This document shows, piece after piece, positions 1 to 18,924 of a DNA stretch of 64,000 nucleotides. The position numbers were made by a program, and so were the translations under genes. The stretch spans positions 3,805 through 67,804 of the forward strand of contig SVPQ01000007.1 in the NCBI GenBank assembly GCA_015065845.1. The letters are read 5' to 3'. The DNA is from Oscillospiraceae bacterium (GTDB lineage: Bacteria > Bacillota > Clostridia > Oscillospirales > Acutalibacteraceae). Each line of letters starts with the position of its first letter. The first letter of the stretch is position 1. A model generated the notes under the pieces. That model made no database searches, was not told the origin of the DNA, and saw only the letters and a list, made by a program, of their open reading frames with translations.

Positions 1-251
1 TTTCTGTAAATGAAAAGACAAGAAAAACCAACCATATCGTCAGTTACCTTGATAGAATAACTGTTTATGGAAGAATATTGAAAGACGATATCTCAATAGT
101 TGATTATCTTGAAGTATTTACTTTGGCTCAAATAACAGAATTTATAAATTTAGCGTCAGAAAATAATTGCACTAATGTGGTTGCTGCGTTACTTAATTAC
201 AAAAAAGAGCAATATTCTGATTTTGACCCAATGGCAGAGTTTGTATTATAA
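1..251 (+). CDS. 3-prime end of a CDS truncated by the window edge; helical module related to the central spacer of the downstream LRR paralogs
   Basis: Frame 3 is open from base 3 to TAA at 249-251 (...LASENNCTNVVAALLNYKKEQYSDFDPMAEFVL*). It resembles the AFLLDYKNKNY helix block of the LRR genes. The next gene starts 12 nt downstream. Confidence 0.5.
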   Translation, partial: SVNEKTRKTNHIVSYLDRITVYGRILKDDISIVDYLEVFTLAQITEFINLASENNCTNVVAALLNYKKEQYSDFDPMAEFVL

Positions 252-263
252 GGAGAATAAAAA

Positions 264-1766
264 ATGAGCGATGTTAAAGATTTTGTAATTGAAAATGGAG
301 TGCTGAAAAAATACATAGGTATTGATGCAGAAGTTGTTATCCCAGAGGGTGTAACGAGTATTGGTATTTGGGCTTTTGAAGGTTGTGTAAACCTCACAAC
401 AATCACTATCCCCGATAGTGTGACAAGTATTGATGATAATGCTTTTAGAGACTGCACAAACCTTACAGCAATCGCTATTCCAGATAGCGTTTTAAAAATT
501 GGTTGGTGGGCTTTTTATGGTTGTAATAGTCTTACAACTATAAATATCCCAAATAGTGTAACAAGTATTAGCAAACAGGTTTTTTGTGGTTGTAGTAAAC
601 TTACAACTATCACTATTCCTAAAAGTGTAACAAGTATTGGCAATTTGGCTTTTGAGAATTGCACAGGACTTACAACAATAGATATCCCAGAAAGTGTAAC
701 AAGTATTGGCAATTTGGCTTTTGAAAATTGCACAGGACTTACAACAATAGATATCCCAGAAGGTGTAACGAGTATTGGTGATAAGGCTTTCAGTGGTTGT
801 AGTAATCTTGCCACTATCATTGTTCCCAAATCTGTAAAAAAAGTCAGCACTGGGTGTTTTTCTGAAAAAACAAAAGTGTTTTTAGAATCTCCTACAATGT
901 TAGAAAATACTATCCTACAAAATCATCCTATTCTAGCAATAGTTGCACCACATATTAAGTTAACTGATTACAAAGATAGTATCCACAAATTTTCATTGAC
1001 GCTGGGCTATTTAGTTTCCCCGGATTTGTATTCAGACCAGGAGATTGCATCTGAATACAAAAAATATGCAAAAAAAGAGTTTGTAAAAATAATTGATTTT
1101 GTTGTAAAAAATGATTTACCTGAAGCAATTGAAACTTACATAACACTTGGTAAAATTACTTCTGCGAATGCAGAAAGTTATATTTTAAGCCTTGCAGAAC
1201 AGAACAATGCAACGGAATGTATAAATCACTTGAAAACTTGGATTTCAAGTAATTCACAATCTGAAAATAGCGAAGATTCTACAACAGAAAGTAAAATGCT
1301 TTCTGTAGCAGAAGTTAAAAAAATGTTTGGTTATTATGAAAAAGAAGATAGTACACTTTGCATTTATTCATATAAGTTACCATTAAGAGTTGTGGATTTC
1401 CCATCAATTATTGGTAAAAAAATAGTTTCTGAAATTGGTTGCAGTAAAAGTGGTAAAAATTTTGACTGGGGAAAAACAAAGATAAAAAGCGTAATGATTC
1501 CAGACAGTGTAACAAGTATAGGTAATTATGCATTCTGGTTGTGTAAAAACCTCACTACAATCACAATACCAGACAGTGTGACAAGTATTGGTGATTATGC
1601 TTTCGGATGTTGCGAAAATCTTACAACAATTACCATCCCAAACGGTGTTACGAGTATTGGTGATGAAGCTTTTTACAATTGCGAAAAACTAACTATTCAC
1701 GCCCCTAAGGGTAGTTATGCTGAGCAGTATGCAAAAGAAAATAAAATAAACTTTGTGGCAGAATAA
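264..1766 (+). CDS. BspA-type leucine-rich repeat (LRR_5-like) protein, paralog 1, no signal peptide
   Basis: AAGGAG RBS. N-cap [17 protein letters not shown]. About 23-aa repeats IPxSVTSIGxxAFxxCxxLTxI, then a non-repeat helical middle and a second LRR block. C-cap HAPKGSYAEQYAKENKINFVAE. Confidence 0.9.
   Translation: MSDVKDFVIENGVLKKYIGIDAEVVIPEGVTSIGIWAFEGCVNLTTITIPDSVTSIDDNAFRDCTNLTAIAIPDSVLKIGWWAFYGCNSLTTINIPNSVTSISKQVFCGCSKLTTITIPKSVTSIGNLAFENCTGLTTIDIPESVTSIGNLAFENCTGLTTIDIPEGVTSIGDKAFSGCSNLATIIVPKSVKKVSTGCFSEKTKVFLESPTMLENTILQNHPILAIVAPHIKLTDYKDSIHKFSLTLGYLVSPDLYSDQEIASEYKKYAKKEFVKIIDFVVKNDLPEAIETYITLGKITSANAESYILSLAEQNNATECINHLKTWISSNSQSENSEDSTTESKMLSVAEVKKMFGYYEKEDSTLCIYSYKLPLRVVDFPSIIGKKIVSEIGCSKSGKNFDWGKTKIKSVMIPDSVTSIGNYAFWLCKNLTTITIPDSVTSIGDYAFGCCENLTTITIPNGVTSIGDEAFYNCEKLTIHAPKGSYAEQYAKENKINFVAE
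624..761 (+). repeat. 69-bp tandem duplication (2 units, 1 mismatch) inside LRR paralog 1
   Basis: Units 624-692 and 693-761 both encode SVTSIGNLAFENCTGLTTIDIPE. They differ only at gagaattgc versus gaaaattgc. Confidence 0.9.
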
Positions 1767-1778
1767 AGGAGTATTATT

Positions 1779-3827
1779 ATGAGTGATATTAAGGATTTTG
1801 TAATTGAAGATGGTGTGCTTGAAGAGTACACAGGTAACGATGCAGAGGTTGTCATTCCAGAGGGTGTAACAAGCATAGGTGATAGTGCGTTTTCTGGATG
1901 TACAAACCTTACCGCAATTACCATCCCAGACAGTGTAACAAGCATAGGTAATTATGCGTTTGGAGAATGTACAAACCTTACCACAATCACAATACCAGAC
2001 AGTGTGACAAGTATAGGTGGAAATGCGTTCTGGGGTTGTAAAGGGCTTGCAGATAAAAAAGGTTTTGTAATTATAAACGGAACTTTATATTATTACTGCG
2101 GTTTCGAAAAAAATGTGGTTATACCTGAGGGTGTAACAAGTATAGGTGGTGCATTTGAGTATTGTGAAAATATTGAATCAATCACAATTCCTAACAGTGT
2201 GACAAGTATAGGTGATAGTGCGTTTAAATATTGTACAAATCTCACTACAATCACCATCCCAGAAAGTGTGACAAGTATAGGTCATGGTGCATTTTCTGGA
2301 TGTACAAACCTCACCGCAATTACCATCCCGGACAGTGTAACAAGCATAGATGCTTGGGCGTTTTCTGGATGTGAAAAACTCACCACAATCACAATACCAG
2401 ACAGTGTTACAAGCATAGATGCTTGGGCGTTTGGAGAATGTACAAACCTCACCACAATCACAATACCAGACAGTGTGACAAGTATAGGTGATAAAGTGCT
2501 TGGTGGTTGTAATAAATTGAACGTTATTAATCTTCCACAAAATATAACATCATTTAAAGGCTCTTCGCTTGAAGTAATATGGGATGCTTTATCAAAAACA
2601 GAATCGAAAGAAGTTGTTTTAAAATCATTTATCACTCAGTTACCGATTGATGTACTTAATGATGCAGATTTAAGCAAAAAAATAAAAGCAAATAAAAAAC
2701 TAATTATTGATTGTATAATAAAAAATGACGAAGCAGACGCTTTAGAAAAATTTTTCAGCTTATATAAAACAATTAAGCTTGATGAGCTTAATGAATACAT
2801 AGAAAAAGCGGAAGATTCAGTAAGTGTTTTAGCATTCCTTTTAGATTATAAAAATAAAAATTATACAATCGAAAAACAAGAAAAACACGAAAATGATAAG
2901 CTTGATAAAGAACTTGGGCTTAAAGAACTTACGCTTGCTGAATGGAAAAAGATTTACACATTTGATGTGAATGGTGATGAAGCAACTGTTACAGGATACA
3001 AAGGATTAGATTTAAATGTAATTATTCCTTCAAATATTGATAAGTATAAAGTTGTAGCAATTGCAGACTATGCTTTTAGTACAGAGGCAAGAGGTGTAAG
3101 AAAAGACATAAAAGAAATAAGAAGAAAAATAGAGTCTATTGTTATACCGGAAAGTGTAGTACGTATAGGTAATTATGCGTTTTCTGGATGTGAAAACCTC
3201 ACTACAATTACCATCCCAGACAGCGTGAGAAAAATAGGTGAATATTCGTTTTCTAAATGTACGAACCTCACCTCAATCACCATCCCAGACAGTGTAACAA
3301 GTATAGGTGCTTGGGCGTTTTATAAATGTACAAACCTCACCACAATTACAATACCAGACAGTGTGACAAGCATAGGTAATTATGCGTTTTATAAATGTAC
3401 AAACCTCACCACAATTACAATACCTAACAGTGTTACAAGCATAGGTAATTATGCGTTTGAAGAATGTACAAACCTCACCTCAATCACCATCCCAGACAGT
3501 GTAACAAGTATAGGTGGTGGCGCATTTTCTGGATGTAAAAACCTCACTACAATCACAATCTCAGACAGTGTGACAAGTATAGGTTTTAGAGCATTTTATG
3601 GTTGTAGAATTCTTGCATCTATTACAATTCCTGACGGTGTTACAAGTATAGGTGCTGGGGCGTTTTCTGGATGTGCAAACCTCACTACAATCACAATCCC
3701 AGACAGTGTTACGAGTATTGGTGAGGGTACTTTTTACAATTGCGAAAAACTAACTATCCACGCACCTAAGGGTAGTTATGCTGAGCAGTATGCAAAAGAA
3801 AATGAAATAAATTTCATAGCAGAATAA
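1779..3827 (+). CDS. BspA-type LRR protein, paralog 2 (LRR block, about 230-aa helical spacer, LRR block)
   Basis: Conserved junction taaaggagtattattATGagtgatatt. Caps MSDIKDFVIEDGVLEEY and HAPKGSYAEQYAKENEINFIAE. More than 15 repeats of 23 aa. No signal peptide. Confidence 0.9.
   Translation: MSDIKDFVIEDGVLEEYTGNDAEVVIPEGVTSIGDSAFSGCTNLTAITIPDSVTSIGNYAFGECTNLTTITIPDSVTSIGGNAFWGCKGLADKKGFVIINGTLYYYCGFEKNVVIPEGVTSIGGAFEYCENIESITIPNSVTSIGDSAFKYCTNLTTITIPESVTSIGHGAFSGCTNLTAITIPDSVTSIDAWAFSGCEKLTTITIPDSVTSIDAWAFGECTNLTTITIPDSVTSIGDKVLGGCNKLNVINLPQNITSFKGSSLEVIWDALSKTESKEVVLKSFITQLPIDVLNDADLSKKIKANKKLIIDCIIKNDEADALEKFFSLYKTIKLDELNEYIEKAEDSVSVLAFLLDYKNKNYTIEKQEKHENDKLDKELGLKELTLAEWKKIYTFDVNGDEATVTGYKGLDLNVIIPSNIDKYKVVAIADYAFSTEARGVRKDIKEIRRKIESIVIPESVVRIGNYAFSGCENLTTITIPDSVRKIGEYSFSKCTNLTSITIPDSVTSIGAWAFYKCTNLTTITIPDSVTSIGNYAFYKCTNLTTITIPNSVTSIGNYAFEECTNLTSITIPDSVTSIGGGAFSGCKNLTTITISDSVTSIGFRAFYGCRILASITIPDGVTSIGAGAFSGCANLTTITIPDSVTSIGEGTFYNCEKLTIHAPKGSYAEQYAKENEINFIAE
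2496..3190 (+). repeat. About 700-bp spacer module, copy 1 of 3 (near-identical copies in paralogs 2, 5 and 7)
   Basis: Runs from gtgcttggtggttgtaataaattgaa to gtagtacgtataggtaattatgcgttttctggatgt. It aligns by eye, with long identical runs, to 9244-9948 and 14044-14739. Confidence 0.85.
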
Positions 3828-3839
3828 AGGCGTATTATT

Positions 3840-4115
3840 ATGAGTGATATTAAATATTTTGTAATTGAAAATGGTGTGCTTAAAAAGTACAAAGGTAACG
3901 ATGCAGAAGTTGTTATTCCAGAGGGTGTAACAAGTATAGGTTATGGTGCGTTTTATAGTTGTGAAAACCTCACCACAATCACAATCCCAGACAGTGTGAC
4001 AAGTATAGGTGAAAGTGCGTTTTCTTATTGTAAAAACCTCACCATCCACGCCCATGCAGGAAGCTACGCAGAAAAATATGCAAAGAAAAATAAAATAAAA
4101 TTTGTGGCAGAATAA
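3840..4115 (+). CDS. Minimal BspA-type LRR protein (N-cap, about two repeats, C-cap; 91 aa)
   Basis: Same junction/RBS and the same caps ([17 protein letters not shown] ... [22 protein letters not shown]). Lies 20 nt upstream of the vWA gene. Confidence 0.8.
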
Positions 4116-4135
4116 AAAGAAAGAAATTTTAATTT

Positions 4136-5581
4136 ATGGATAATGAAAAATACGAAAAACTTAATAAGTTAGCAAAAGATGTACTTAATCTTTCAAGAAA
4201 TACGCTTCTTGTGAATTTAAGGTTTCTCGATATGGCTTTAAGTAGATTTCAGTACTTTAATTGTTCGGAGTCAACCTATTTTACAAACGGTGAATTTTTG
4301 TTGTATAACCCTGAGCATGTTTTAAAAAGCTACAAGCAGGAAAAAGAAGCTCCGGCAAGAGATTTTTTGCATATTGTTATGCATTGTATTTTTAGACACA
4401 TGTTTATGAATCCTAAACTTAACAGACCGTTGTGGGATTTAGCGTGTGATGTAGCTGTTGAAAACGTTATAAATGACCTTTGTTTAAAACAGGTAGATAC
4501 TGCGAGAGCGATAATACAACAGAAAGAAATTGCGAAGATTAAAGCTAATGTTAAAATTCTCACAGCCGAAAAAATATATAATTATCTTGTTGATAATTTA
4601 AGCGAGAGAGAAGCGGCAGAGCTTCGCGGATGCTTTTATGCCGATAACCACGAGGTGTGGTATATGACCGAAAGCGAAATTGCCGAAAAGTACAACCTCG
4701 TAGCAGTTGCGGATGGCAGCAAGCCTGATAACCCGCAAAGAGATAATAAAAGTGCAAGCGGTAGCGGTAACAAAGATGGCGACGAGCAGAGCAACAATGG
4801 TGATAGTGAAAACGATGGTCAGTCTGGTAATGGCAGTAGTAAAAGAAATGAGCTTAACCAGATGTGGCAAGAAATTTCTGAAAGAATGCAGACAGACCTT
4901 GAAACCTTCTCGAAAGAACAAGGCGACAAAGCCGGTGGTCTTGTGCAGAATCTTAAGGCGGTAAATCGTGAGAAATATGACTACACCGCATTTTTAAAGA
5001 AATTTGCAGTTTTAGGCGAAACAATGAAGGTAAATGACGATGAATTTGATTACATCTTTTACACCTATGGCTTGAAACTGTACGACAAAATGCCACTTGT
5101 TGAACCGCTTGAGTATAAAGAAGTAAAAAGAATTAAAGAATTTGTTATTGCTATTGATACATCCGGTTCTGTGCAAGGTGATTTAGTACAGAGCTTTGTG
5201 CAGAAAACCTATAATGTTTTGAAAAGTACAGAAAGTTTTTTCAGCAAAATAAATTTACATATTATTCAATGTGATGCCGATATTCAGGAGCATGTAAAAA
5301 TTACAACGCAAGAAGAATTTGATGATTACTTGAAAAATATGTCAATAAAAGGTCTTGGTGGAACAGATTTCAGACCTGTATTTAATACAGTCAATAAACT
5401 CATTATGGAAAAAGAGTTTACAAACCTTAAAGGGCTTATTTACTTTACTGACGGATATGGCGAGTTTCCGAAACAAAAACCTGACTACGATACTGCATTT
5501 GTTTTTATTGATGATGAGTACAACAATCCGGACGTACCACCATGGGCAATAAAATTAGTTTTACAGAAGGATGAGATATAA
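4136..5581 (+). CDS. vWA-domain protein with an N-terminal degenerate metallopeptidase-like domain (DUF2201_N/DUF2201-like architecture)
   Basis: C-terminal MIDAS-like motifs IAIDTSGSV (DxSxS), GGTDF and YFTDGYG. N-terminal FLHIVMHCIFRH looks like HExxH with the Glu lost. An acidic/Ser/Gly/Asn-rich linker (SGSGNKDGDEQSNNGDSENDGQSGNGSS) joins the two halves. Confidence 0.8.
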   Translation: MDNEKYEKLNKLAKDVLNLSRNTLLVNLRFLDMALSRFQYFNCSESTYFTNGEFLLYNPEHVLKSYKQEKEAPARDFLHIVMHCIFRHMFMNPKLNRPLWDLACDVAVENVINDLCLKQVDTARAIIQQKEIAKIKANVKILTAEKIYNYLVDNLSEREAAELRGCFYADNHEVWYMTESEIAEKYNLVAVADGSKPDNPQRDNKSASGSGNKDGDEQSNNGDSENDGQSGNGSSKRNELNQMWQEISERMQTDLETFSKEQGDKAGGLVQNLKAVNREKYDYTAFLKKFAVLGETMKVNDDEFDYIFYTYGLKLYDKMPLVEPLEYKEVKRIKEFVIAIDTSGSVQGDLVQSFVQKTYNVLKSTESFFSKINLHIIQCDADIQEHVKITTQEEFDDYLKNMSIKGLGGTDFRPVFNTVNKLIMEKEFTNLKGLIYFTDGYGEFPKQKPDYDTAFVFIDDEYNNPDVPPWAIKLVLQKDEI

Positions 5582-5587
5582 ATTACT

Positions 5588-6676
5588 GTGAGCGATAAAG
5601 ATTTAGTAATTATAAATAATAAGGTTATGTGCTACAGGGGAAATGATGAAAATATCGTTGTCCCGCAGGGTGTAACCTGTATTAGTGAAGATGCGTTTTA
5701 TAACTGTGTAAGTATTAAATCAATTACTTTGCCTGAAACTGTTACAGAAATTAAAGTTCTCGCCTTTTGTGGTTGTAAAAATCTTAAAGGAATAAATCTT
5801 CCAGATAAAATTACAACAATAAATTACAGTACCTTTAATGCTTGCTACAGTTTAGAAAAAGTAGTGCTTCCATACGATTTAAGGTTGATATGTTTAAATG
5901 CATTTTGTGATTGTAAAAAATTAAAACATATAATTTTACCGGAAAATATTACAAGTTTTAAATTCAGTTCATTAAAAGTGATATGGGACTATTTCACCGG
6001 AACAGAACATGCAGTAGCAATTAAATGTTCATTTCTGAAGCAGTATTTCCATTTTGTAAAAGAAGAAACAGAATTAAAAAGAAAAATTAAAGTGAGCAAG
6101 AAAAATATAGTAAAATTTGCTATTGAACTTGATGATGCGGAAATTGTAAAAAACTTGTTTTCACTTTATAAAAAAATCCAATTAGATGAGTTGGATGCTT
6201 TTTTAAGTGAAGCGGAAAATTCAGTTTCTGTTCGTGCATTTCTTCTGGAATACAAGAATTCAAAATATTCTGTTGCAGAGCAAGAGGGTTTCTGGAACCT
6301 TGAAGCAGAAAAATCGTTGGGGTTAAAAGAAAGATGTATTTCGGATTGGAAAAAGATTTTTGGCTTTTATGTGAAAGACGGAACTGCTATAATAACTAAA
6401 TATAAGTCATTGGAAAGTGTAGTAGAAGTTCCTGAAAAAATTGGTAAATATGTAGTTACCGGAATTTCAGAAAAGGCTTTTTCGGCTTATGCACCACGAC
6501 TTACGGATAAAGAAAAAATAAGCAGAAAAAAATTAGAACACATTACATTGCCGGTAACTATAAATAAAATAGCAGAAGATGCATTTTTCGGATGTACACT
6601 ACTCACTTTTCATAGTGAAGGAAATGATTATATAGAGCAATACGCAAAGAAACATAATATTCCAATAGAAAAATAA
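5588..6676 (+). CDS. Divergent LRR protein with the same overall layout (LRR, helical spacer, short LRR), GTG start
   Basis: GTG at 5588, 6 nt after the vWA stop. SDKDLVIINNKVMCYRGNDENIVVPQGVTCISEDAFYNC parallels the paralog N-cap. The spacer motif VSVRAFLLEYKNSKYS and the tail YIEQYAKKHNIPIEK are diverged versions of the family motifs. Confidence 0.8.
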   Translation: MSDKDLVIINNKVMCYRGNDENIVVPQGVTCISEDAFYNCVSIKSITLPETVTEIKVLAFCGCKNLKGINLPDKITTINYSTFNACYSLEKVVLPYDLRLICLNAFCDCKKLKHIILPENITSFKFSSLKVIWDYFTGTEHAVAIKCSFLKQYFHFVKEETELKRKIKVSKKNIVKFAIELDDAEIVKNLFSLYKKIQLDELDAFLSEAENSVSVRAFLLEYKNSKYSVAEQEGFWNLEAEKSLGLKERCISDWKKIFGFYVKDGTAIITKYKSLESVVEVPEKIGKYVVTGISEKAFSAYAPRLTDKEKISRKKLEHITLPVTINKIAEDAFFGCTLLTFHSEGNDYIEQYAKKHNIPIEK

Positions 6677-6693
6677 ATTTCAGGGGGTTAACC

Positions 6694-8205
6694 ATGAACA
6701 TCAAAGAAGCTAAAATTGAAATACAGAATGCTATGAAGGCATATTTTACAAAGGACCAATTCGGTAATTACGTTATACCGATTGAACGCCAACGCCCCGT
6801 TTTCTTAATGGGTGCACCCGGTATCGGTAAAACTGCAATTATGGAGCAGGTAGCTGCAGAGCTTGGTGTAAGCCTTGTTTCTTACTCAATGACGCACCAC
6901 ACAAGACAGTCTGCTATAGGCCTTCCGTTTATTGAAAGAAAAAATTACGGCGGCAAAGAGTATGACGTTTCAGAATATACAATGTCAGAAATTATTGCGT
7001 CTGTGTACGATATGATTGAAAAAACAGGTAAAAAAGAGGGTATTCTTTTTCTTGATGAGGTTAACTGTGTTTCTGAAACTCTTGCACCTGCAATGCTTCA
7101 GTTTTTGCAATATAAAGTATTCGGCAGACACAGAGTGCCTGATGGCTGGATTGTTGTTACTGCGGGTAACCCACCTGAATATAACAACTCAGTCCGTGAA
7201 TTCGACATTGTTACATGGGACAGACTCAAGAGAATTGATGTTGACCCTGATTTTGATGCGTGGAAGGAATATGCCTACAAAAAAGGTGTTCATGCTTCAA
7301 TAATTACTTATCTTGATATTAAAAAAGGTGATTTCTATAAAATAGAAACCACTGTTGACGGCAAAAGCTTTGTTACTGCCCGTGGTTGGTCAGATTTATC
7401 AGATATGATTCACCTTTATGAGCAGAATGATATTAAGGTAACAGAAAAATTTGTTGCACAATATATTCAAAATAAAAAAATAGCTAAAAGCTTTGCTACA
7501 TATTACGATTTATTTAATAAATATAAATCTGATTATCAAATTGACACAATTCTTAATGGTAAAGCAGGCGACGGAATTAAAATGCGTGCTAAAAACGCTA
7601 AATTTGATGAGCGTTTTAGTTTACTTGGACTTTTACTTGATGCGGTAACTGCAGAGCTTCGCACAGTTTGTGGTAGAGAGCTTTCATTGACGGAGCTACT
7701 TAATGCATTAAAGATGGTTAAAGTTGAACTTGTAAAGCCTACAGCAGATGCAACTTCTGTTATTGAAAAACAAATTGAGAAATATGAAAAAGATATTTCT
7801 GTCGGCAAAGCTGCTTCAAGCCTTTCTGTTGAAGATGAGCTTAAATTACGCTCTACAATTTCAGTGTTAGAAGAAATTATTGGCGTAATTAAAGAAAAAG
7901 AACCTCAGGACAATACAAAAGCATTCATTTTAATTAAAGAGTGCTTCGACAAACAAAGAGATGAACTTAAAAAAGGTGCTGATTCTTCAAGTAAAAAACT
8001 CTCAAATGTGTTTAAATTCTGCGAAGAAGTCTTTGGCGAGGGTCAGGAAATTCTCATTCTCGTAACAGAGCTTACTATAAGCTACTATGGTGCTCATTTT
8101 ATAAGCCGTTATGGGTGTAAAGAATATTTCGACCATAACAAAGAGCTTCTTTTCTACGAAAGACAAAAAGAGATTATAACAGAACTTGAAAACTTAGAGT
8201 TATAA
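6694..8205 (+). CDS. MoxR-like AAA+ ATPase (AAA_5-type) with a C-terminal helical extension
   Basis: Walker A GAPGIGKT, Walker B ILFLDEVN, sensor-1-like VVTAGNPPEYN. GGGGG RBS. Sits 17 nt after the preceding LRR gene. Confidence 0.85.
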   Translation: MNIKEAKIEIQNAMKAYFTKDQFGNYVIPIERQRPVFLMGAPGIGKTAIMEQVAAELGVSLVSYSMTHHTRQSAIGLPFIERKNYGGKEYDVSEYTMSEIIASVYDMIEKTGKKEGILFLDEVNCVSETLAPAMLQFLQYKVFGRHRVPDGWIVVTAGNPPEYNNSVREFDIVTWDRLKRIDVDPDFDAWKEYAYKKGVHASIITYLDIKKGDFYKIETTVDGKSFVTARGWSDLSDMIHLYEQNDIKVTEKFVAQYIQNKKIAKSFATYYDLFNKYKSDYQIDTILNGKAGDGIKMRAKNAKFDERFSLLGLLLDAVTAELRTVCGRELSLTELLNALKMVKVELVKPTADATSVIEKQIEKYEKDISVGKAASSLSVEDELKLRSTISVLEEIIGVIKEKEPQDNTKAFILIKECFDKQRDELKKGADSSSKKLSNVFKFCEEVFGEGQEILILVTELTISYYGAHFISRYGCKEYFDHNKELLFYERQKEIITELENLEL

Positions 8206-8226
8206 AATATTAAAAGGAGTATTATA

Positions 8227-10446
8227 ATGAGTGATATTAAAGATTTTGTAATTGAAGATGGTGTGTTGAAAAAATATAAAGGTAAAGAAACAGAGATTGT
8301 CATTCCAGACAGTGTAACAAGTATAGGTAGTGGTGTGTTTAGTGAATGTATAAACCTCACTACAATCACAATACCAGACAGTGTAACAAGCATAGGTGCT
8401 TGGGCGTTTAAATATTGTACAAATCTCACTACAATCACAATCCCAGACAGTGTGACAAGTATAGGTGTGGATGCTTTTAAATATTGTGAAAATCTTACAA
8501 CAATTACCATCCTAGACAGTGTGACAAGTATAGGTGGTGGTGCATTTTATGGATGTAGCAGCCTCACCGCAATTACAATACCGGATAATGTGACAAGTAT
8601 AGGTAAAAATGCTTTTTTTAGCACATCTTACTATAAGAATAAATCAAATTGGGAAAATGGTGTCTTACACATAGGTAACCATTTAATAAAAGCAAAAAAG
8701 AATATTTCAGGTACATATACAATAAGAAATGGTACAAAAACTATTGCTGACAATGCTTTTGAAGCTTGCGAATCTCTCACAGGCATTACAATACCAGACA
8801 GTGTTACAAGCATAGGTGCTTGGGCGTTTGAAGAATGTACAAACCTTACCACAATCACAATACCAGAAAGTGTTACAAGTATAGGTGTGGATGCTTTTAA
8901 ATATTGTGAAAATCTTACAACAATTACCATCCCAGACAGTGTGACAAGTATAGGTGGAAATGCTTTTTTTAGCACATCTTACTATAATAATAAATCAAAT
9001 TGGGAAAAAGGTGTCTTACACATAGGTAACCATTTAATAAAAGCAAAAAAGAATATTCCAGGTACATATACAATAAGAAATGGTACAAAAACTATTGCTG
9101 ACAATGCGTTTGGAGAATGTACAAACCTCACCACAATCACAATACCAGACAGTGTTACAAGCATAGGTGCTTGGGCGTTCGGAGAATGTACAAACCTCAC
9201 TACAATCACCATCCCAGACAGTGTGACAAGTATAGGTGATTATGTGCTTGGTGGTTGTAATAAATTGAACGTTATTAATCTTCCACAAAATATAACATCA
9301 TTTAAAGGCTCTTTGCTTGAAAGAATATGGGATGCTTTATCAAAAACAGAATCGAAAGAAGTTGTTTTAAAATCATTTATCACTCAGTTGTCGATTGAAA
9401 TGCTCAAAGATGCGGATTTGAGTAGAAAAATAAAAACAAACAAAAAGTTGATAATTGATAATATAATAAAAAATGATGATGCAGAAGCATTAGCCAAACT
9501 TTTAAACTTGTATAAAACAATTAAGATAGATGAACTTAACGAATATATTGAAAATGCGAAAGATTCAGTAAGTGTTTTAGCATTCCTTTTAGATTATAAA
9601 AATAAAAATTATACAATCGAAAAACAAGAAAAACACGAAAATGATAAGCTTGATAAAGAACTTGGGCTTAAAGAGAGAACACTTGCCGAATGGAAGAAAA
9701 TTTATTCATTTGATGTAATTGATGTAAATGGTGCCAAAGCAACTATTACAGGATATAAAGGCGTAGATTTAAATGTAATTATTCCTTCAAATATTGATAA
9801 GTATAAAGTTATAGCAATTGCAGACTATGCTTTTAGTACAGAGGCAAAAGGTGTAAGAAAAGACATAAAAGAAATAAGAAGAAAAATAGAGTCTATTGTT
9901 ATACCGGAAAGTGTAGTACGTATAGGTAATTATGCGTTTTCTGGATGTGCAAACCTCACTACAATTACCATCCCAGACAGCGTGAGAAAAATAGGTGGAT
10001 ATTCGTTTTCTGGATGTAAAAACCTCACCGCAATCACAATACCTGACGGTGTGAGAAGTATAGGTGATAGGGCGTTTGAAGAATGTACAAACCTTACCAC
10101 AATCACAATACCGGACGGTGTTACAAGTATAGGTGAATATTCGTTTTCTGGATGTGAAAATCTCACCACAATCACAATCCCAGAAAGTGTTACAAGTATA
10201 GGTGAACATGCGTTTTATAGTTGTACAAACCTCACCGCAATCACAATACCCGAAGGAGTAACAAGTATAGGTGAAGAAGCATTCCGTTGGTGTGAAAAAC
10301 TCACTACAATCACAATACCAGATAGTATAACAAGTATAGGTTATAGGGCGTTTTCTTATTGTAAAAACCTCACTATCCACGCCCATACAGGAAGCTACGC
10401 AGAAAAATATGCAAAGAAAAATAAAATAAACTTTGTGGCAGAATAA
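8227..10446 (+). CDS. BspA-type LRR protein, paralog 5 (739 aa) with an internal 351-bp-offset duplication
   Basis: Conserved junction and caps. The FFSTSYYxNKSNWExGVLHIGNHLIKAKKNI.GTYTIRNGTKTIADNAF insert occurs twice. The shared 700-bp spacer module is present. Confidence 0.9.
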   Translation: MSDIKDFVIEDGVLKKYKGKETEIVIPDSVTSIGSGVFSECINLTTITIPDSVTSIGAWAFKYCTNLTTITIPDSVTSIGVDAFKYCENLTTITILDSVTSIGGGAFYGCSSLTAITIPDNVTSIGKNAFFSTSYYKNKSNWENGVLHIGNHLIKAKKNISGTYTIRNGTKTIADNAFEACESLTGITIPDSVTSIGAWAFEECTNLTTITIPESVTSIGVDAFKYCENLTTITIPDSVTSIGGNAFFSTSYYNNKSNWEKGVLHIGNHLIKAKKNIPGTYTIRNGTKTIADNAFGECTNLTTITIPDSVTSIGAWAFGECTNLTTITIPDSVTSIGDYVLGGCNKLNVINLPQNITSFKGSLLERIWDALSKTESKEVVLKSFITQLSIEMLKDADLSRKIKTNKKLIIDNIIKNDDAEALAKLLNLYKTIKIDELNEYIENAKDSVSVLAFLLDYKNKNYTIEKQEKHENDKLDKELGLKERTLAEWKKIYSFDVIDVNGAKATITGYKGVDLNVIIPSNIDKYKVIAIADYAFSTEAKGVRKDIKEIRRKIESIVIPESVVRIGNYAFSGCANLTTITIPDSVRKIGGYSFSGCKNLTAITIPDGVRSIGDRAFEECTNLTTITIPDGVTSIGEYSFSGCENLTTITIPESVTSIGEHAFYSCTNLTAITIPEGVTSIGEEAFRWCEKLTTITIPDSITSIGYRAFSYCKNLTIHAHTGSYAEKYAKKNKINFVAE
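8608..9107 (+). repeat. Internal direct duplication in paralog 5 (8608-8756 versus 8959-9107)
   Basis: The two roughly 150-bp segments are near-identical by eye, at an offset of 351 bp. Confidence 0.85.
9244..9948 (+). repeat. About 700-bp spacer module, copy 2 of 3
   Basis: Aligns with 2496-3190 and 14044-14739. Carries a 9-nt insertion (attgatgta). Confidence 0.85.
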
Positions 10447-10539
10447 AGAGGATTATTTTGTGATATTGAGTGGAAATTTGATTAGATTTTAATTGTTATT
10501 AAATGATAATGAAGTTTTTAGGATTGAGGTTTTAGTCGA

Positions 10540-11175
10540 ATGAACGAAAGAAAAATATGTCCTGTTATCGACAATATGGACAAGCGTTATACATATGCAC
10601 AGCATAAGGGCAGGTACAGTCAAGCGATGAAATATGAGTTTTATTTCGAAGCGTTGATGATTGATTATGCTCTTATGGAAGACAGATTGAAATCGTTTTT
10701 GTATCATGCAGGTGTATTAAATTCAAGAACATCCCATAAAATTGATTGCAGTAAACCTAATAAGGCTTTGTTAAAACAAATTTATTGTAAGTATCGAAAT
10801 AAAACTGATGTCAATTTACCGAAGATTCAGAATATAAGCGGTAAGATTGATATTATAAGAGCTGTCCTTGAATGGGTAAGTAATACAGAACAAAATCCTA
10901 ATGATAGCCGATATCTTAGAACTTTAAAAAATCAATGTGAGTCTGTTGATATTGGCGATATGTTGAATACTTTGAAAATGATTGAAGATTGGTGTAAGTA
11001 TCGCAATGAGGTTGTTCATGCATTGATGAATAAAAATATTGATTCCCTGAGGAGTGTACTTTGTGATAAGGCAATCGAAGGGATGGAACTTGCCAATCGA
11101 CTTGATACCTATGTTCGTGATATGAAAAAGGGTAATAAGGTTCGTAAATCTGCAAATATGTGTATTGAAAAATAA
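10540..11175 (+). CDS. Small HEPN-like protein (Rx4H motif)
   Basis: KYRNEVVHAL (R at 11002-11004, H at 11017-11019) lies in the C-terminal third of an all-helical-looking 211-aa protein. No other recognisable domain. Confidence 0.6.
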   Translation: MNERKICPVIDNMDKRYTYAQHKGRYSQAMKYEFYFEALMIDYALMEDRLKSFLYHAGVLNSRTSHKIDCSKPNKALLKQIYCKYRNKTDVNLPKIQNISGKIDIIRAVLEWVSNTEQNPNDSRYLRTLKNQCESVDIGDMLNTLKMIEDWCKYRNEVVHALMNKNIDSLRSVLCDKAIEGMELANRLDTYVRDMKKGNKVRKSANMCIEK

Positions 11176-11200
11176 AAGATAAGACTTAAGGTGATAAGAA

Positions 11201-12277
11201 TTGCGCTATATAATCAACGATAAAAAATATCATTTTAAATCAGCTTTTGATACTGAAACAGGTGCTTATGTCCGTACCGGTATTCTCGATGAAAATGGTA
11301 ATGATACAGGTGTTGATCCGTTTATGGCTTCATATCCTCATTTAATAGATGTTGGCATTATGGGACACTGTATTCACGGTAAAACCGGACTTTGTGCAAA
11401 AGCAGGTATCGGATGTTATCAAAGCGGTATGTTAGTAGAACAACCCAATATGTCGGTTGAAGACTTCAGGTGGATTGCAGAACAATCCAAAGGCAAATGC
11501 AATCAATTTGCTCTCGGTGGCAGAGGCGACCCCGACCAGCACGAGCATTTTGAAGAAATACTTAAAATCTGTCGAGAAAATGTGCTTGTGCCTAATTTCA
11601 CTACATCAGGTTACGGTATGACCCCCGAAATAGCAAAGCTTTGCAAACAGTATTGTGGTGCTGTTGCAGTAAGCTGGTATAGAAGCGAATATACGTTAAG
11701 AGCAATTCAAATGTTGCTTGATGCAGGGGTAAAAACCAATATACATTATGTGCTTGGCAAAAACAGTATTGATGAAGCGATTGAAAGACTGCAAAATAAT
11801 GATTTTCCAAAAGGAATCAACGCAGTAATCTTTTTGCTACACAAGCCGGCTGGTCAAGGCACCAAAGCAAATATGCTTGAAGCGAACGACCCAAGAGTTG
11901 CAAAATTTTTTGCCGAGGTGGATAAACAGCATCCATTTAAAGTTGGTATGGATAGCTGTAACGTGCCTGGCGCTATCAATTTCTGCAAATCTATCTTACC
12001 AGAATCTCTTGATACTTGTGAAGGTGGCAGATATAGTTGTTATATCGGTGCCGATATGATTATGGTGCCTTGCAGTTTTGACCAAGAAAAGCGATATGAA
12101 GTTTCTCTTCGTGATATGTCTATCACCGAAGCGTGGAATAGCGAACCTTTTGAGCGTTTTCGTAACAAAATGCGTGGTGCTTGTCCGAATTGCGAAAAGA
12201 AAGAACTTTGCATGGGCGGTTGCCCACTAATGCCTGAAATCGTTTTCTGTGAAAGCATAAAAAGAAAAATAATATAA
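11201..12277 (+). CDS. SPASM-domain radical-SAM-like enzyme with a non-canonical N-terminal Cys triad
   Basis: TTG start with AAGGTGA RBS. C-terminal CPNCEKKELCMGGC is CX2CX5CX3C (12182-12223), preceded by CEGGRYSCYIGADMIMVPC, which fits the SPASM pattern. LGGRGDP is GGEP-like. The N-terminal cluster site reads HCIHGKTGLCAKAGIGC (CX7CX6C) instead of CX3CX2C. Confidence 0.7.
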   Translation: MRYIINDKKYHFKSAFDTETGAYVRTGILDENGNDTGVDPFMASYPHLIDVGIMGHCIHGKTGLCAKAGIGCYQSGMLVEQPNMSVEDFRWIAEQSKGKCNQFALGGRGDPDQHEHFEEILKICRENVLVPNFTTSGYGMTPEIAKLCKQYCGAVAVSWYRSEYTLRAIQMLLDAGVKTNIHYVLGKNSIDEAIERLQNNDFPKGINAVIFLLHKPAGQGTKANMLEANDPRVAKFFAEVDKQHPFKVGMDSCNVPGAINFCKSILPESLDTCEGGRYSCYIGADMIMVPCSFDQEKRYEVSLRDMSITEAWNSEPFERFRNKMRGACPNCEKKELCMGGCPLMPEIVFCESIKRKII

Positions 12278-12295
12278 ACCAAGGGAGTAAATAAC

Positions 12296-13447
12296 ATGAA
12301 AATTAGAACTGATTTTGTGACCAATTCAAGTAGCTCAAGTTTTACGCTTATGATTAAATTTGATTTGGTTAATGGTAAAAGTGTTGAGTTTTATGCTCAA
12401 GGAGGCTCAGGTGAAACCGGTAGAATTGACTATTTTGATGCTGAAGCTATAGTTAATGTAAGCCCTAAACAATTGGGTAACGCTAAAAATGTTGATGAAC
12501 TTATTCAATTGCTCGAAGAAGGTGTTGTTGACGGAGAGGATGAAACAAAAATTTTTGATGAATCTCGCCCCGTAGAAAGTGAGGTGGGTGCAGGTGTATT
12601 TGATGCCTACGATTTTGTTATTGAAATTCGTGAGAAGATTAAATCAATGGAAGATATAGAATCTATAACAATTACAGGTAATGAAGAAAATTATGAGAGT
12701 TATAAACGTAGTTACACATATAACCTAAAAACAAAAGAATATACAGGTACTGAAGACGGATATTTACTACTTGAGGTTGATGGTTCTAACGGTGGTGATT
12801 TATGCTTCGATGATTTGCAGTCATGTGTTGTGCAAGCTGATTTATCCGTGGAAGATGATGAGTATTGGGAAAAGGATTTTTCGGACCTCACCACAATCAG
12901 AATCCCAGACAGTGTGACAAGTATAGGTGATTGGGAGTTTGATGGATGTGAAAACCTCACCACAATCACAATCCCCGACAGTGTAACAAGTATAGGTGAG
13001 GGTGCATTTTATGGATGTATCAGCCTCACCGCAATCACAATACCAGACAGTGTAACGAGTATTGGTGCTGAGGCTTTTGCATATTGCGAAAACCTTACAA
13101 CAATAAATATCCCCGACAGTGTAACAAGTATAGGTGAAAGTGCGTTTTCTTTTTGTGTAAACCTCACCACAATCACAATCCCGGACAGTGTGACAAGTAT
13201 AGGGGAAAGCGCGTTCGAATATTGCTCAAGCCTTACATCAATCAATATTCCTGAGAGTGTAACAAGTATAGGTGAAAGTGCGTTTAAATATTGTACAAAA
13301 CTCACCACAATCACAATCCCCGACAGTGTAACAAGCATAGGTGCTTGGGCGTTTGATGGATGTAAAAACCTCACCATCCACGCACCTAAGGGTAGTTATG
13401 CTGAACAGTATGCAAAAGAAAATAAAATAAAATTCATAGCAGAATAA
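12296..13447 (+). CDS. Chimeric protein: unique about 195-aa N-terminal domain (MKIRTDFVTNSSSSSF...) fused to seven BspA-type LRRs and the family C-cap
   Basis: GGGAG RBS. The N-terminal domain resembles nothing else in the window. From [15 protein letters not shown] onward it is a typical paralog, ending HAPKGSYAEQYAKENKIKFIAE. Confidence 0.85.
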   Translation: MKIRTDFVTNSSSSSFTLMIKFDLVNGKSVEFYAQGGSGETGRIDYFDAEAIVNVSPKQLGNAKNVDELIQLLEEGVVDGEDETKIFDESRPVESEVGAGVFDAYDFVIEIREKIKSMEDIESITITGNEENYESYKRSYTYNLKTKEYTGTEDGYLLLEVDGSNGGDLCFDDLQSCVVQADLSVEDDEYWEKDFSDLTTIRIPDSVTSIGDWEFDGCENLTTITIPDSVTSIGEGAFYGCISLTAITIPDSVTSIGAEAFAYCENLTTINIPDSVTSIGESAFSFCVNLTTITIPDSVTSIGESAFEYCSSLTSINIPESVTSIGESAFKYCTKLTTITIPDSVTSIGAWAFDGCKNLTIHAPKGSYAEQYAKENKIKFIAE

Positions 13448-13458
13448 GGAGTGTTATT

Positions 13459-15177
13459 ATGAGTGATATCAGAGATTTTGTAATTGAAAATGGAGTGTTG
13501 AAAAAATATACAGGTAATGAAAAAGAGGTTGTCATTCCAGAGGGCGTAACAAGCATAGGTGAAAATGCGTTCTGGTGGTGTAAAAACCTCACTACAATCA
13601 CAATACCTGACAGTGTAACAAGCATAGGTGCTTGGGCGTTTAAATATTGTACAAATCTCACTACAATCACAATACCAGACAGTGTTACAAGTATAGGTTA
13701 TGGTGCGTTTTCTGAATGTGAAAACCTCACCGCAATTACAACAATCCCGGACAGTGTGACAAGTATAGGTGGAAATGCGTTCTGGGGTTGTAAAGGGCTT
13801 GCAGATAAAAAAGGTTTTGTAATTATAAACGGAACTTTATATTATTACTGCGGTTTCGAAAAAAATGTGGTTATACCTGAGGGTGTAACAAGTATAGGTG
13901 ATAGTGCATTTGAAAATTGTTCATCTCTTACCACAATTACAATACCAGATAGTGTGACAAGTATAGGCGACAGTGCGTTTTCTTATTGTAAAAACCTCAC
14001 TACAATCACAATCCCTGACAGTGTGAAAAGTATGGGTAAAGATGTGCTTGGTGGTTGTAATAAATTGAATGTTATTAATCTTCCACAAAATATAACATCG
14101 TTTAAAGGTTCTTCTCTTGAAATAATATGGGATGCTTTATCAAAAACAGAATCGAAAGAAGTTGTTTTAAAATCATTTATCACTCAGTTACCGATTGATG
14201 TACTTAATGATGCAGATTTAAGCAAAAAAATAAAAGCAAATAAAAAACTAATTATTGATTGTATAATGAAAAATGACGAAGCAGAAGCTTTAGAAAAATT
14301 TTTCAGCTTATATAAAACAATTAAGTTTGATGAGATTAATGAATACATAGAAAAAGCAAAAGATTCTGTAAATGTTTCAGCGTTTCTTTTGGATTATAAA
14401 AATAAGAATTACACAGTTGAAAAACAAGAAAAGCACGAAAATGATAAGCTTGATAAAGAACTTGGGCTTAAAGAGAGAACACTTGCCGAATGGAAGAAAA
14501 TTTATTTATTTGATGTAAATGGTGACGAAGCAACTATTACAGGATACAAAGGATTAGATTTAAATGTAATTATTCCTTCAAGTATTGCGAAGTATAAAGT
14601 TGTAGCAATTGCTGACAACGCTTTTATTCCTGAAGCGACTGGTTTAAGAAAAGACATAAAAGAAATAAGAAGAAAAATAGAGTCTATTGTTATACCGGAA
14701 AGTGTAGTACGTATAGGTAATTATGCGTTTTCTGGATGTAAAAACCTCACTACAATCACAATCCCAGACAGCGTGACAAGTATAGGTAAAATGGCGTTTT
14801 ATGGTTGTAGTGGCCTCACCGCAATTGCAATCCCAGACAGCGTGACAAGTATAGGTAAAATGGCGTTTTATGGTTGTAGTGGCCTCACCGCAATTGCAAT
14901 CCCTGACAGTGTAACAAGTATAGGTGAGAGTGCATTTGAGGGTTGTCAAAACCTCACCGCAATCACAATACCAGACAGTGTGACAAGTATAGGTGAAAGT
15001 GCGTTTTCTTGGTGTAAAAACCTTACTACAATCACAATTCCTGACAGTGTTACGAGTATTGGTAAGGATGCTTTTTACAATTGCGAAAAACTAACTATCC
15101 ACGCCTATGCAGGAAGCTACGCAGAAAAATATGCAAAAGAAAATAAAATTCATAGCAGAATAAAGGAGTATTGTTAA
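13459..15177 (+). CDS. BspA-type LRR protein, paralog 7, with a frameshifted C-terminal cap
   Basis: Conserved junction and N-cap. Shares a 150-bp identical block with paralog 2 (13751-13900 = 2000-2148). The tail reads YAKENKIHSRIKEYC* instead of YAKENKIKFIAE*. Confidence 0.85.
   Translation: MSDIRDFVIENGVLKKYTGNEKEVVIPEGVTSIGENAFWWCKNLTTITIPDSVTSIGAWAFKYCTNLTTITIPDSVTSIGYGAFSECENLTAITTIPDSVTSIGGNAFWGCKGLADKKGFVIINGTLYYYCGFEKNVVIPEGVTSIGDSAFENCSSLTTITIPDSVTSIGDSAFSYCKNLTTITIPDSVKSMGKDVLGGCNKLNVINLPQNITSFKGSSLEIIWDALSKTESKEVVLKSFITQLPIDVLNDADLSKKIKANKKLIIDCIMKNDEAEALEKFFSLYKTIKFDEINEYIEKAKDSVNVSAFLLDYKNKNYTVEKQEKHENDKLDKELGLKERTLAEWKKIYLFDVNGDEATITGYKGLDLNVIIPSSIAKYKVVAIADNAFIPEATGLRKDIKEIRRKIESIVIPESVVRIGNYAFSGCKNLTTITIPDSVTSIGKMAFYGCSGLTAIAIPDSVTSIGKMAFYGCSGLTAIAIPDSVTSIGESAFEGCQNLTAITIPDSVTSIGESAFSWCKNLTTITIPDSVTSIGKDAFYNCEKLTIHAYAGSYAEKYAKENKIHSRIKEYC
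14044..14739 (+). repeat. About 700-bp spacer module, copy 3 of 3
   Basis: Aligns with 2496-3190 and 9244-9948. Confidence 0.85.
14761..14898 (+). repeat. Exact 69-bp tandem duplication (2 units) inside paralog 7
   Basis: 14761-14829 and 14830-14898 are identical (atcccagacagcgtgacaagtataggtaaaatggcgttttatggttgtagtggcctcaccgcaattgca). Confidence 0.95.
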
Positions 15178-15448
15178 CGAATAATATCGGGCGGATAATT
15201 TAGCTGGTTGAGCCTTGACAATTTGACATAATTGATAGTGGTGGTATAGCGCTATTCGTAATGTGCATATTGAAAAAAATAAAAACTGCTGAAATCTTTG
15301 CCGTCAGGCAATTTCATTACAAAATGTTTCATTATGCAACATTTCATTATCGAAAGGTATCTTTATTTTTGCGTGAAGTTCAAAGGGTTTGAAATGAAGT
15401 TTGCTCCAGAAGTCGCAAAATGAAGTTGTGTTCTTGCGAACATAAAAC

Positions 15449-15481
15449 AAAAATCTCAAGTCTTGTGACTTGAGATTTTTT
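15449..15481 (-). terminator. Intrinsic terminator hairpin after the HIRAN gene (bidirectional-looking)
   Basis: aaaatctcaagtc-ttgt-gacttgagatttt, flanked by an A-run and a T-run. Confidence 0.7.
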
Positions 15482-15482
15482 A

Positions 15483-15971: not shown

Positions 15972-15973
15972 AA

Positions 15974-18913: not shown

Positions 18914-18924
18914 AATAAGTCATC

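Follow-up and report, generated by a model that had tools for sequence, protein, structure and literature searches.

The 64,000-nucleotide (nt) window analysed here is a stretch of contig SVPQ01000007.1 from an Oscillospiraceae bacterium. At positions 264-15177 it holds seven leucine-rich repeat (LRR) genes of the LRR_5 type, all on the plus strand, arranged around one gene for a vWA (von Willebrand factor A) protein and one for a MoxR-like AAA+ ATPase. The region is best read as an expanded copy of a conserved three-component cytoplasmic module, composed of the ATPase, the vWA protein and a partner protein. The open reading frames (ORFs) reported in a preliminary description of this DNA were confirmed, and genes are named below by the position of their first nucleotide. 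LRR_5 (PF13306) was detected in all seven LRR genes with E-values between 1e-14 and 1e-152; the repeat has a period of 69 nt, or 23 amino acids (aa), and a consensus ending in -x-x-A-F-x-x-C-x-N-L-T-T. Eight LRR genes had been counted previously. Seven of these were confirmed by Pfam, whereas the eighth, truncated by the window edge, shows a helical module (described below) and not an LRR. This truncated gene is read in frame 3 to a stop codon at 249-251, and its product ends in ...DFDPMAEFVL*, a tail matching that of the partner family; translation of the part visible in the window gave neither an LRR nor the YAxxNxIxF cap. The N-cap and the C-cap, formerly assigned to seven genes each, were found in six visible genes and in six genes, respectively. 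The short intergenic gaps of the earlier account (6-21 nt) hold from 1766 to 8227, but two non-LRR genes lie within the array, and array-wide the gaps are 6-25 nt with the exception of 93 nt before the 10540 gene. No credible terminator was found inside the array, and the only strong hairpin follows the last gene. The tight gaps and the single convincing terminator therefore give a layout that fits one long transcription unit.

The distribution of these genes was analysed by a scan of species representatives (one genome per species) with a diverse ATPase alignment, which returned at least 597 sites. The best 80 loci, found in Acutalibacteraceae, Oscillospiraceae, Lachnospiraceae, Ruminococcaceae and Eggerthellaceae, were kept and combined with three loci fetched earlier into a set of 83. 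A DUF2201-type vWA gene adjoins the ATPase gene in 78 of the 83 loci. Among the scan loci that extend for at least 2.5 kb to either side, an LRR_5 gene and/or a gene with the helical module was located inside the pair or no more than 500 nt away in 50 of 52; in one of the two exceptions the partner gene lies 675 nt off, behind an lgt-like gene. ORFs carrying the module numbered 84 inside or within 500 nt of the pair as compared with 4 in the flanks farther out than 2.5 kb, which total 657 kb; this is a more than 100-fold excess in density. The reverse test, in which the minimal partner alone served as the query against metagenome contigs, gave the same picture: all 58 loci with at least 3.2 kb upstream of the partner also hold the ATPase and the vWA gene, and as a rule fewer than 200 nt separate the end of the ATPase gene from the start of the partner downstream. 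For this search a 16-sequence alignment was too diverse, while a 6-sequence alignment worked. Four gene orders were observed (LRR-vWA-AAA, vWA-LRR-AAA, vWA-AAA-LRR and AAA-LRR-vWA), all with the same set of genes, and this variation of order between lineages around a constant set speaks for selection on the gene set rather than inherited adjacency. Thus the link between the LRR genes and the MoxR-like/vWA pair, noticed previously in this one array, extends to a near-universal synteny, which holds from whichever member the search starts, in different families and with several gene orders. ATPase, vWA protein and partner form an obligate three-gene set, or triad, inherited together at the at least 597 sites, mostly in gut Clostridia and also in some Eggerthellaceae. 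The number of module-bearing partners is one in 53 of the 80 loci and reaches nine in a single locus, L010; with six such partners and two LRR genes lacking the module (3840 and 12296), this window is among the most expanded copies seen. In L010 the array spans 3099-18521, with nine module genes, one of them of a DUF4132 type, around one vWA/AAA pair, and is followed by a calcineurin-like phosphoesterase gene.

Comparison with related loci separated a conserved core from an expanding periphery. The nearest relative (L084-L086) contains only a vWA gene, an LRR gene (362 aa), the AAA gene and a second LRR gene (831 aa), flanked by an aminotransferase gene and comF/recD2-like genes. Between the window and L084, the ATPase is 90% identical, the vWA protein 78% and the 5588 LRR protein 90%, as opposed to 33% for the LRR gene after the ATPase. 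Against two further loci (L001 and L004), the identities were 87-91% for the ATPase, 76% for the vWA protein and 32-48% for the other LRR partners; the best matches of the 5588 protein there reached 42% in L001 and 39% in L004. The orthologue of the 5588 protein (P0271, 90% identical) occupies the same position between the vWA and AAA genes. The high identity of the ATPase, the vWA protein and the 5588 protein against the low identity of the other LRR proteins therefore marks the genes at 4136-8205 as the conserved triad. The array had been described as built around the pair. The pair is indeed central, but only 5588-6676 is the conserved partner, and the other LRR genes of the window are a recent, lineage-specific expansion with fast turnover. 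The 1779, 8227 and 13459 genes share 85-87% nucleotide identity over more than 1.1 kb.

The variation among the window paralogues is concentrated at five positions of the 23-aa repeat (12, 13, 16, 17 and 19). Ratios of nonsynonymous to synonymous substitution rates (dN/dS) among these paralogues were 0.20-0.22 for the helical module and 0.23-0.46 for the LRR parts, consistent with purifying selection overall, and gene-wide positive selection was looked for among them and not found. In triads with one partner, the median dN/dS values were 0.075 for the ATPase, 0.076 for the vWA protein and 0.090 for the partner; within the partner, they were 0.131 for the LRR part and 0.074 for the helical part. 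Purifying selection on the three genes of these triads is thus strong and of similar degree, and the module is more constrained than the LRR parts.

The helical module, of about 100-190 aa, is common to almost all partners and ends in an aromatic-x-x-aromatic-x-Leu tail. It is the central domain of the 264, 1779, 5588, 8227 and 13459 proteins, where the preliminary description had overlooked it. Residues 271-385 of the 1779 protein served as the seed of an iterative hidden Markov model (HMM) search, in which the module turned up in 113 ORFs among the fetched loci, nearly all adjoining the pair. No Pfam family matched the helical region even at E-values up to 10, and the central helical region of 193 aa, used as the query of a word-indexed protein search, returned no match at E<=1e-3. 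In most loci the module is joined to LRR_5, but it is also fused to ankyrin repeats (L017, L030), DUF6273 (L021, L042, L045, L049) and DUF4132 (L010, L037). The module is therefore what the third components have in common, and the solenoid or ligand-binding domain is what varies. In the one-partner triads of Lachnospiraceae, the partner of about 300 aa opens with two or three LRR_5 repeats and continues as a helical stretch of about 190 aa, which contains the conserved motifs LCGEEDY, RLMH, HTKG..EEAW and MKAYLMRYK and closes with the conserved tail ...F-x-x-[FL]-x-L, to which D or DW may be added. The conserved partner of the window, the 5588 protein, starts with an LRR_5 part (aa 1-125), continues with a helical domain (aa 128-257) and finishes in a short LRR and its cap; the module match covers aa 139-249 (nt 6002-6334). 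Its AlphaFold model has a mean per-residue confidence (pLDDT) of 93.7 and a predicted template modelling score (pTM) of 0.76, with about ten helices at residues 128-257. A fold search with the full model gave only LRR_5 structures among the 50 matches shown.

The absence of signal peptides from the LRR proteins, asserted earlier, was borne out by a crude hydropathy test (not SignalP): in the seven LRR proteins of the window, the highest 12-aa Kyte-Doolittle average in the first 40 aa was at most 1.56, and no 19-aa window exceeded 1.33. A hydropathy scan of 107 module proteins likewise found no N-terminal hydrophobic stretch. Judged by these profiles, the LRR partner proteins look cytoplasmic.

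The coordinates and domain assignments of the array are listed below.

Features of the partner array and its core genes in the window (coordinates in nt from the first letter of the window)
Feature	Coordinates	Strand	Content and evidence
Upstream partner gene, 3' end, truncated by the window edge	3..251	+	C-terminal half of helical module (~nt 75-221), module E=4e-8
Peripheral partner paralogue, 500 aa	264..1766	+	LRR_5 / helical module / LRR_5; Pfam LRR_5 2e-99; module aa 241-342, nt 984-1289, E=2.7e-15
Peripheral partner paralogue, 682 aa	1779..3827	+	LRR_5 / helical module / LRR_5; Pfam; module aa 271-385, nt 2589-2933, used as module-search seed
Mini LRR gene, 91 aa	3840..4115	+	N-cap, one or two repeats, C-cap; Pfam LRR_5 1.7e-14
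Core component 1, vWA protein	4136..5581	+	Pfam DUF2201 6e-15, DUF2201_N 1.5e-9; phrog_1314 1e-41
Core component 2, conserved partner, diverged LRR_5 gene, 362 aa	5588..6676	+	Pfam LRR_5; module E=3e-29
Core component 3, MoxR-like AAA+ ATPase, 503 aa	6694..8205	+	Pfam AAA 34.7 bits, AAA_5 32.7 bits
Peripheral partner paralogue, 739 aa	8227..10446	+	LRR_5 / helical module / LRR_5; Pfam; module aa 371-485, nt 9337-9681, E=1e-35
Accessory HEPN-like gene, 211 aa	10540..11175	+	YRNEVVHAL (Rx4H); HEPN_RiboL-PSP 21.5 bits, below 28.4 cut-off
Accessory SPASM / degenerate radical-SAM gene, 358 aa	11201..12277	+	SPASM 32 bits; Radical_SAM 23.1 bits, below 29.5 cut-off; further matches in NCBIfam and to phrog_7293
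Chimeric paralogue, 383 aa	12296..13447	+	Unannotated N-terminal domain (MKIRTDFVTNSSSSSF...) and C-terminal LRR_5; Pfam
Peripheral partner paralogue, 572 aa	13459..15177	+	LRR_5 / helical module / LRR_5; Pfam; module aa 227-341, nt 14137-14481, E=6e-38
Terminator-like bidirectional hairpin, 14-bp stem	15449..15480	.	Marks the end of the array and of the convergent HIRAN gene

The ATPase is a member of a large and well-conserved family. Of over 8000 proteins scored, the best 120 listed are all at least 75% identical to the window ATPase, and 7211 cluster representatives were matched at E<=1e-3 and 634 at E<=1e-30. Its identification as a MoxR-like AAA+ protein agrees with AAA and AAA_5 scores above the Pfam cut-offs (22 bits for AAA_5) and with tblastn alignments to PGAP-annotated 'MoxR family ATPase' genes, which cover the whole AAA domain (23-31% identity over 270-330 aa, E 1e-18 to 1e-20); one homologue, P0060, bears the name 'MoxR family ATPase' in its source. 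The bpMoxR (beta-propeller subtype) profile scored 23.2 bits, below its cut-off of 27, and the ATPase profile matched the PDB only around the P-loop. The Walker A motif (G40-T47), the Walker B motif (D121/E122) and the sensor and Arg residues (N159, R177 and R230) do not vary among 34 diverse homologues with identities of 36-63%. Because these motifs persist down to 36% identity, the protein should be catalytically active. It carries a helical C-terminal extension of about 220 aa (roughly residues 280-500), which AlphaFold predicted confidently.

The vWA protein is composed of an N-terminal zincin-like DUF2201_N domain (38.3 bits, cut-off 23.2), an acidic low-complexity linker and a C-terminal vWA domain (DUF2201, 55.8 bits, cut-off 26.4). 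The intact metal ion-dependent adhesion site (MIDAS) attributed to it earlier was verified (DTSGS...GGTD...FTDG), and D-x-S-x-S is kept in 74 of 78 vWA proteins. No sequence relative was found in the PDB. In the window protein the zincin-like motif reads LHIVMHCIFRH, with the Glu of HExxH replaced by Ile; in the orthologous motif H-x-x-x-H-x-x-x-x-H, 74 of 79 proteins have a hydrophobic or small residue directly following the first His, and two of the 79 have Glu there. From its position and from the two members that keep the Glu, we infer that H-x-x-x-H is the zincin motif. We read the N-terminal domain as a peptidase fold that lost catalysis and may serve instead as a peptide-binding domain. 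The two members with Glu (L042 8269-9951, HEIFH; L049 8492-9994, HEILH) both have DUF6273-type partners, although the correlation is not strict, as the DUF6273 loci L021 and L045 lack the Glu. A search of NCBIfam gave no family for the core proteins, with ViaA scoring 15.6 bits against a cut-off of 500.

It had been suggested that the free ...(V/I)AE-COOH ends of the LRR proteins are ligands of the MIDAS. This idea is not supported: the motif is a folded, generic LRR_5 C-cap that is missing from most orthologous partners. In the AlphaFold model of the 5588 protein, the C-cap forms a helix (347-355) and the final strand with pLDDT of about 90, and the same motif also occurs internally in longer secreted LRR_5 proteins. 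The sequence GSYAEQYAKENKINFVAE is an ordinary LRR_5 C-cap predicted to be folded, and its binding to the MIDAS was rejected. Most orthologous partners have no LRR C-cap and end in the helical module with the ...F-x-x-[FL]-x-L(D)(W) tail. Should the core have a C-terminal peptide as its ligand at all, this conserved aromatic-x-x-aromatic-x-Leu tail is a better candidate than VAE. In five of the six module-bearing genes of the window, the tail motif is internal (...LGLKE.TLAEW...), so no free carboxylate is present there. The frameshift reported near the stop of the 13459 gene was confirmed. It results from the loss of 5 nt within (AAAAT)2, which alters the last residues, and KIKFIAE* can be read in the next frame.

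The 3840 mini gene, which has no match in the module HMM search, is probably a deletion derivative made by recombination between repeats, and a small ORF resembling it was seen in L001 (8047-8439). The 12296 gene also lacks the module. Its N-terminal domain of about 190 aa (12296-12870) starts with MK[IF]RTDFVTNSSSSSF, has no Pfam match even at E-values up to 10 and stands where the N-terminal LRR and helical module would be; it may be a second kind of partner handle. The same architecture, this domain followed by LRR_5, occurs directly 3' of the AAA gene in L024 (11531-13015). A homologue 45% identical to the HEPN-like 10540 product is again found between LRR genes in L014. Counterparts of the accessory genes lie at 6385-6930 and 13136-13644 in L014 and at 5332-5595 in L032, and in these two loci the SPASM gene survives only as N-terminal fragments. 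Antisense ORFs of 80-200 aa run on the minus strand through all LRR genes (e.g. 9787-10386, 13009-13377 and 8154-8510); they are shadows of the 69-nt repeat and not genes.

Downstream, a convergent minus-strand cluster of three genes (15483-20679) adjoins tRNA-Leu (20948-21032). It encodes a HIRAN protein matching the PADLOC candidate PDC-M03B (5.6e-7), a 979-aa protein with two RNA-polymerase alpha-CTD-like domains and a sigma-70 region 4, and a HEPN_Swt1 protein of 584 aa whose DGNRRF motif was taken as ParB-like by eye. Next to the triads of L007 (7-2525) and L014 (18010-21452), the HIRAN gene and the gene for the 979-aa protein are present again, in differing orientations.

Elsewhere, triads stand among housekeeping genes at several loci (e.g. 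L003, L076 and L084). A recurrent fourth gene was looked for in the triad operons and not found, and the accessory genes of expanded arrays are heterogeneous (phosphoesterase, TPR protein, KdpD-N-like protein and PDDEXK fragment). Searches for an ATPase orthologue in 2.9 million viral contigs (best match 28%) and in PLSDB plasmids (matches of 31% or less) found none, and a phage or plasmid origin of the orthologous family was rejected for lack of such orthologues. GenBank records named 'Bacteriophage sp.' did match with 45-50% identity but look like chromosomal fragments. One of them (L003, MT835935) looks like a piece of bacterial chromosome: as read from ORF translations, its triad is surrounded by folC-, ilvE- and degV-like genes, an aminopeptidase-like gene and a gene for an ABC-type membrane protein. 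Six more short records of the MT835935 series hold the ATPase at 45-51% identity. In PADLOC-DB v2, neither the vWA protein nor the LRR proteins had a match, and the ATPase gave only P-loop-level matches (E no better than 8e-5, about 30-60 aa), in line with the earlier expectation that the core proteins belong to no named defence system. Nor was a description of LRR_5 coupled to MoxR or DUF2201 found in the literature searched, as the preliminary description had anticipated. In its behaviour, the conserved minimal triad resembles a stable cellular function more than it does a typical defence island.

How the three components might work together was considered on this basis. In our preferred model, to which we assign a probability of about one half, the triad is a remodelling machine that is driven by ATP and accepts different solenoid receptors in turn. 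Each partner would bind through its helical module and tail, either to the vWA protein or to the extension of the ATPase; the likeliest site is the peptide-binding cleft of the dead zincin domain and/or the vWA MIDAS. The solenoid would hold a ligand or target protein. The AAA+ ring, hydrolysing ATP and acting through the vWA cofactor as in other MoxR-vWA pairs, would then remodel, release or assemble the target. The partners would thus be interchangeable substrate receptors on one motor, and the extra fast-turnover paralogues of this window would widen its target range. Several points weigh against this model. The docking site, whether zincin cleft, MIDAS or the C-terminal domain of the ATPase, is a guess. 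No client or target gene is conserved beside the triad. The module is absent from the 3840 and 12296 genes and from some partners elsewhere, and therefore is not the sole route to association. The ATPase model is also of low confidence in the AAA domain, with pLDDT below 50 over most of residues 1-272 (shallow alignment, >=75% identity), and the best Foldseek matches of this poor model are weak ones to classical AAA proteins (FtsH, Vps4 and p97), not to MoxR proteins, with E-values no better than 1.5e-3. Finally, the partner could equally be a client rather than an adaptor. In that case the MoxR-vWA pair would fold or assemble the LRR/helical proteins, or hand them to non-classical export, after which they would act as BspA-type adhesins. 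Known MoxR-vWA pairs mature dedicated client complexes encoded nearby (PMC3893208), a client-like gene is always adjacent here, and most of the LRR_5 proteins whose structures are solved bear a surface-protein annotation. However, the triad has no membrane or secretion component, none of the 107 module proteins has an N-terminal hydrophobic stretch, and the presence of the module on unrelated folds (Ank, DUF6273 and DUF4132) fits a docking handle better than a shared folding problem. Export or maturation of the partners as clients is accordingly the less likely of the two unlikely functional alternatives we weighed, the other being immunity (see below). That the genes merely lie side by side, with abundant, recombination-prone LRR_5 genes scattered around an unrelated ATPase/vWA pair, has hardly any probability left. 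LRR_5 genes are numerous in gut Clostridia, and 85-87% nucleotide identity over more than 1 kb between paralogues points to recent duplication, but such a coincidence is refuted by the two-way synteny (50/52 and 58/58) and the density excess next to the pair, to which the partner-specific helical module adds.

An immune or conflict function, a reading raised from the beginning, would make the LRR, ANK or DUF6273 parts sensors of invader molecules and the MoxR-vWA pair an ATP-dependent threshold switch that releases an effector, with the array as a sensor repertoire; the effector might be the zincin domain where it has kept its activity, or an accessory gene, for example that of the HEPN-like RNase. 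The three-part logic is shared with MoxR-vWA ternary conflict systems, and the pair has distant homologues among phage genes (phrog_1297 and phrog_1314). The peripheral paralogues turn over very fast, being 33-48% identical where the ATPase is 87-91% identical; variation is concentrated at five positions per 23-aa repeat, and the copy number of partners ranges from 1 to 9 between genomes. In addition, a HEPN-like gene lies inside the array both here and in L014, and the array abuts the HIRAN/sigma-like/HEPN_Swt1 cluster that recurs beside the triad in L007 and L014. Nevertheless, minimal triads have no effector, the Glu of HExxH is lost in 74 of 79 vWA proteins, no accessory gene is recurrent and PADLOC gave no match. 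All three genes of minimal triads have dN/dS of 0.07-0.13, the window paralogues are under overall purifying selection (0.2-0.46), and loci such as L003, L076 and L084 lie among housekeeping genes. The conflict-system reading is thus weakened by purifying selection, housekeeping neighbours, the lack of a recurrent effector and the lack of viral or plasmid orthologues, and we regard it as unlikely. For the expanded arrays, a conflict role is kept open by paralogue turnover, the HEPN-like gene and the HIRAN/sigma-like/HEPN_Swt1 cluster. A broader proposal, which we put forward tentatively and as less likely than not, is that the triads constitute a widespread, undescribed MoxR-vWA ternary class of gut Clostridia in which the new helical docking domain plugs exchangeable LRR_5, ankyrin, DUF6273 or DUF4132 receptors with rapid turnover into one AAA+/pseudo-zincin-vWA motor. 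Expanded arrays like the present one would then be a repertoire for recognition in the cytoplasm, perhaps directed at phages or at other invaders.

MoxR-vWA pairs are common and few have known clients; here a partner was identified by genomics alone, namely an LRR or other solenoid protein with a dedicated, unannotated helical handle. No triad protein has a curated family-level function, and the hosts are abundant Clostridia of the human and animal gut (Lachnospiraceae, Oscillospiraceae and Acutalibacteraceae) as well as Eggerthellaceae. The triad accounts for one class of signal-less 'BspA-like' LRR genes in gut Firmicutes, and it provides a testable model of how a MoxR motor is aimed at different targets. 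The contrast between one-partner triads and arrays of up to nine partners represents a natural experiment on the gain of specificity. If true, the broader proposal of a ternary class would describe a bacterial counterpart of modular substrate-receptor systems.

Among known systems, the triad is a variation on the MoxR-vWA ternary theme with a new adaptor-like domain, previously undescribed and widespread in gut Clostridia. MoxR-vWA pairs are chaperone-like remodellers that act via MIDAS contacts (PMC3893208, PMC7159879). RavA-ViaA, NorQ-NorD, CbbQ-CbbO and CoxD-CoxE resemble the triad in having an AAA_5-type ATPase beside a vWA protein with an intact MIDAS, and a chaperone-like remodelling role is expected here alike. 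Unlike these pairs, the triad has a zincin-like DUF2201_N domain at the N-terminus of its vWA protein, a helical C-terminal extension on its ATPase and an obligate third gene encoding a solenoid with the helical module, and no metalloenzyme client is encoded nearby. Four types of third component, VMAP, iSTAND, FtsH and beta-propeller, were described for MoxR-vWA ternary systems by Kaur et al. in 2020, none of them with LRRs, and those systems carry fused effectors (PMC7159879). The likeness to the triad lies in the MoxR and vWA core, in a third component that carries variable modules and a helical adaptor-like region, and in the weak bpMoxR match. In contrast, the third component of the triad (LRR_5, Ank, DUF6273 or DUF4132 plus the new helical module) belongs to none of the four types, and no effector domain is fused to the vWA protein, which has only DUF2201_N and vWA, or to the third protein; Pfam scans found no enzymatic domain in the partners. 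The triad also differs in its hosts, gut Clostridia and Eggerthellaceae, and in the purifying selection on its minimal form. In phages (e.g. Salmonella phage FSL SP-058), ATPase and DUF2201-type vWA families (PHROGs 1297 and 1314) likewise stand side by side, but with only about 25% identity to the Clostridial pair. Compared by gene content alone, the yehL neighbourhood of E. coli, which we take to hold a vWA gene and a DUF4132 (YehI/MolR-type) gene, resembles the triad in uniting a MoxR-like ATPase, a vWA protein and DUF4132. YehL represents a MoxR subfamily (PMC3893208), and DUF4132 genes also occur at L002 and L035, in addition to the module-bearing DUF4132 proteins in the triads of L010 and L037. 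With BspA-type proteins (TpLRR 6MLX, PcpA 4CP6, 4GT6 and 4H09), the window proteins share the LRR_5 solenoid (Foldseek E 3e-6 to 5e-3); they differ from such surface proteins in lacking a signal peptide (hydropathy scan), lipobox and anchor, in the helical domain inserted or appended, and in their link to the ATPase/vWA pair. By analogy only, with no sequence or structural kinship claimed and with an AAA+/vWA pair instead of a ubiquitin ligase as the core, the triad recalls the F-box-LRR and SOCS-box-ankyrin receptors, in which a small helical docking module combined with interchangeable LRR or ankyrin domains connects many receptors to one core.

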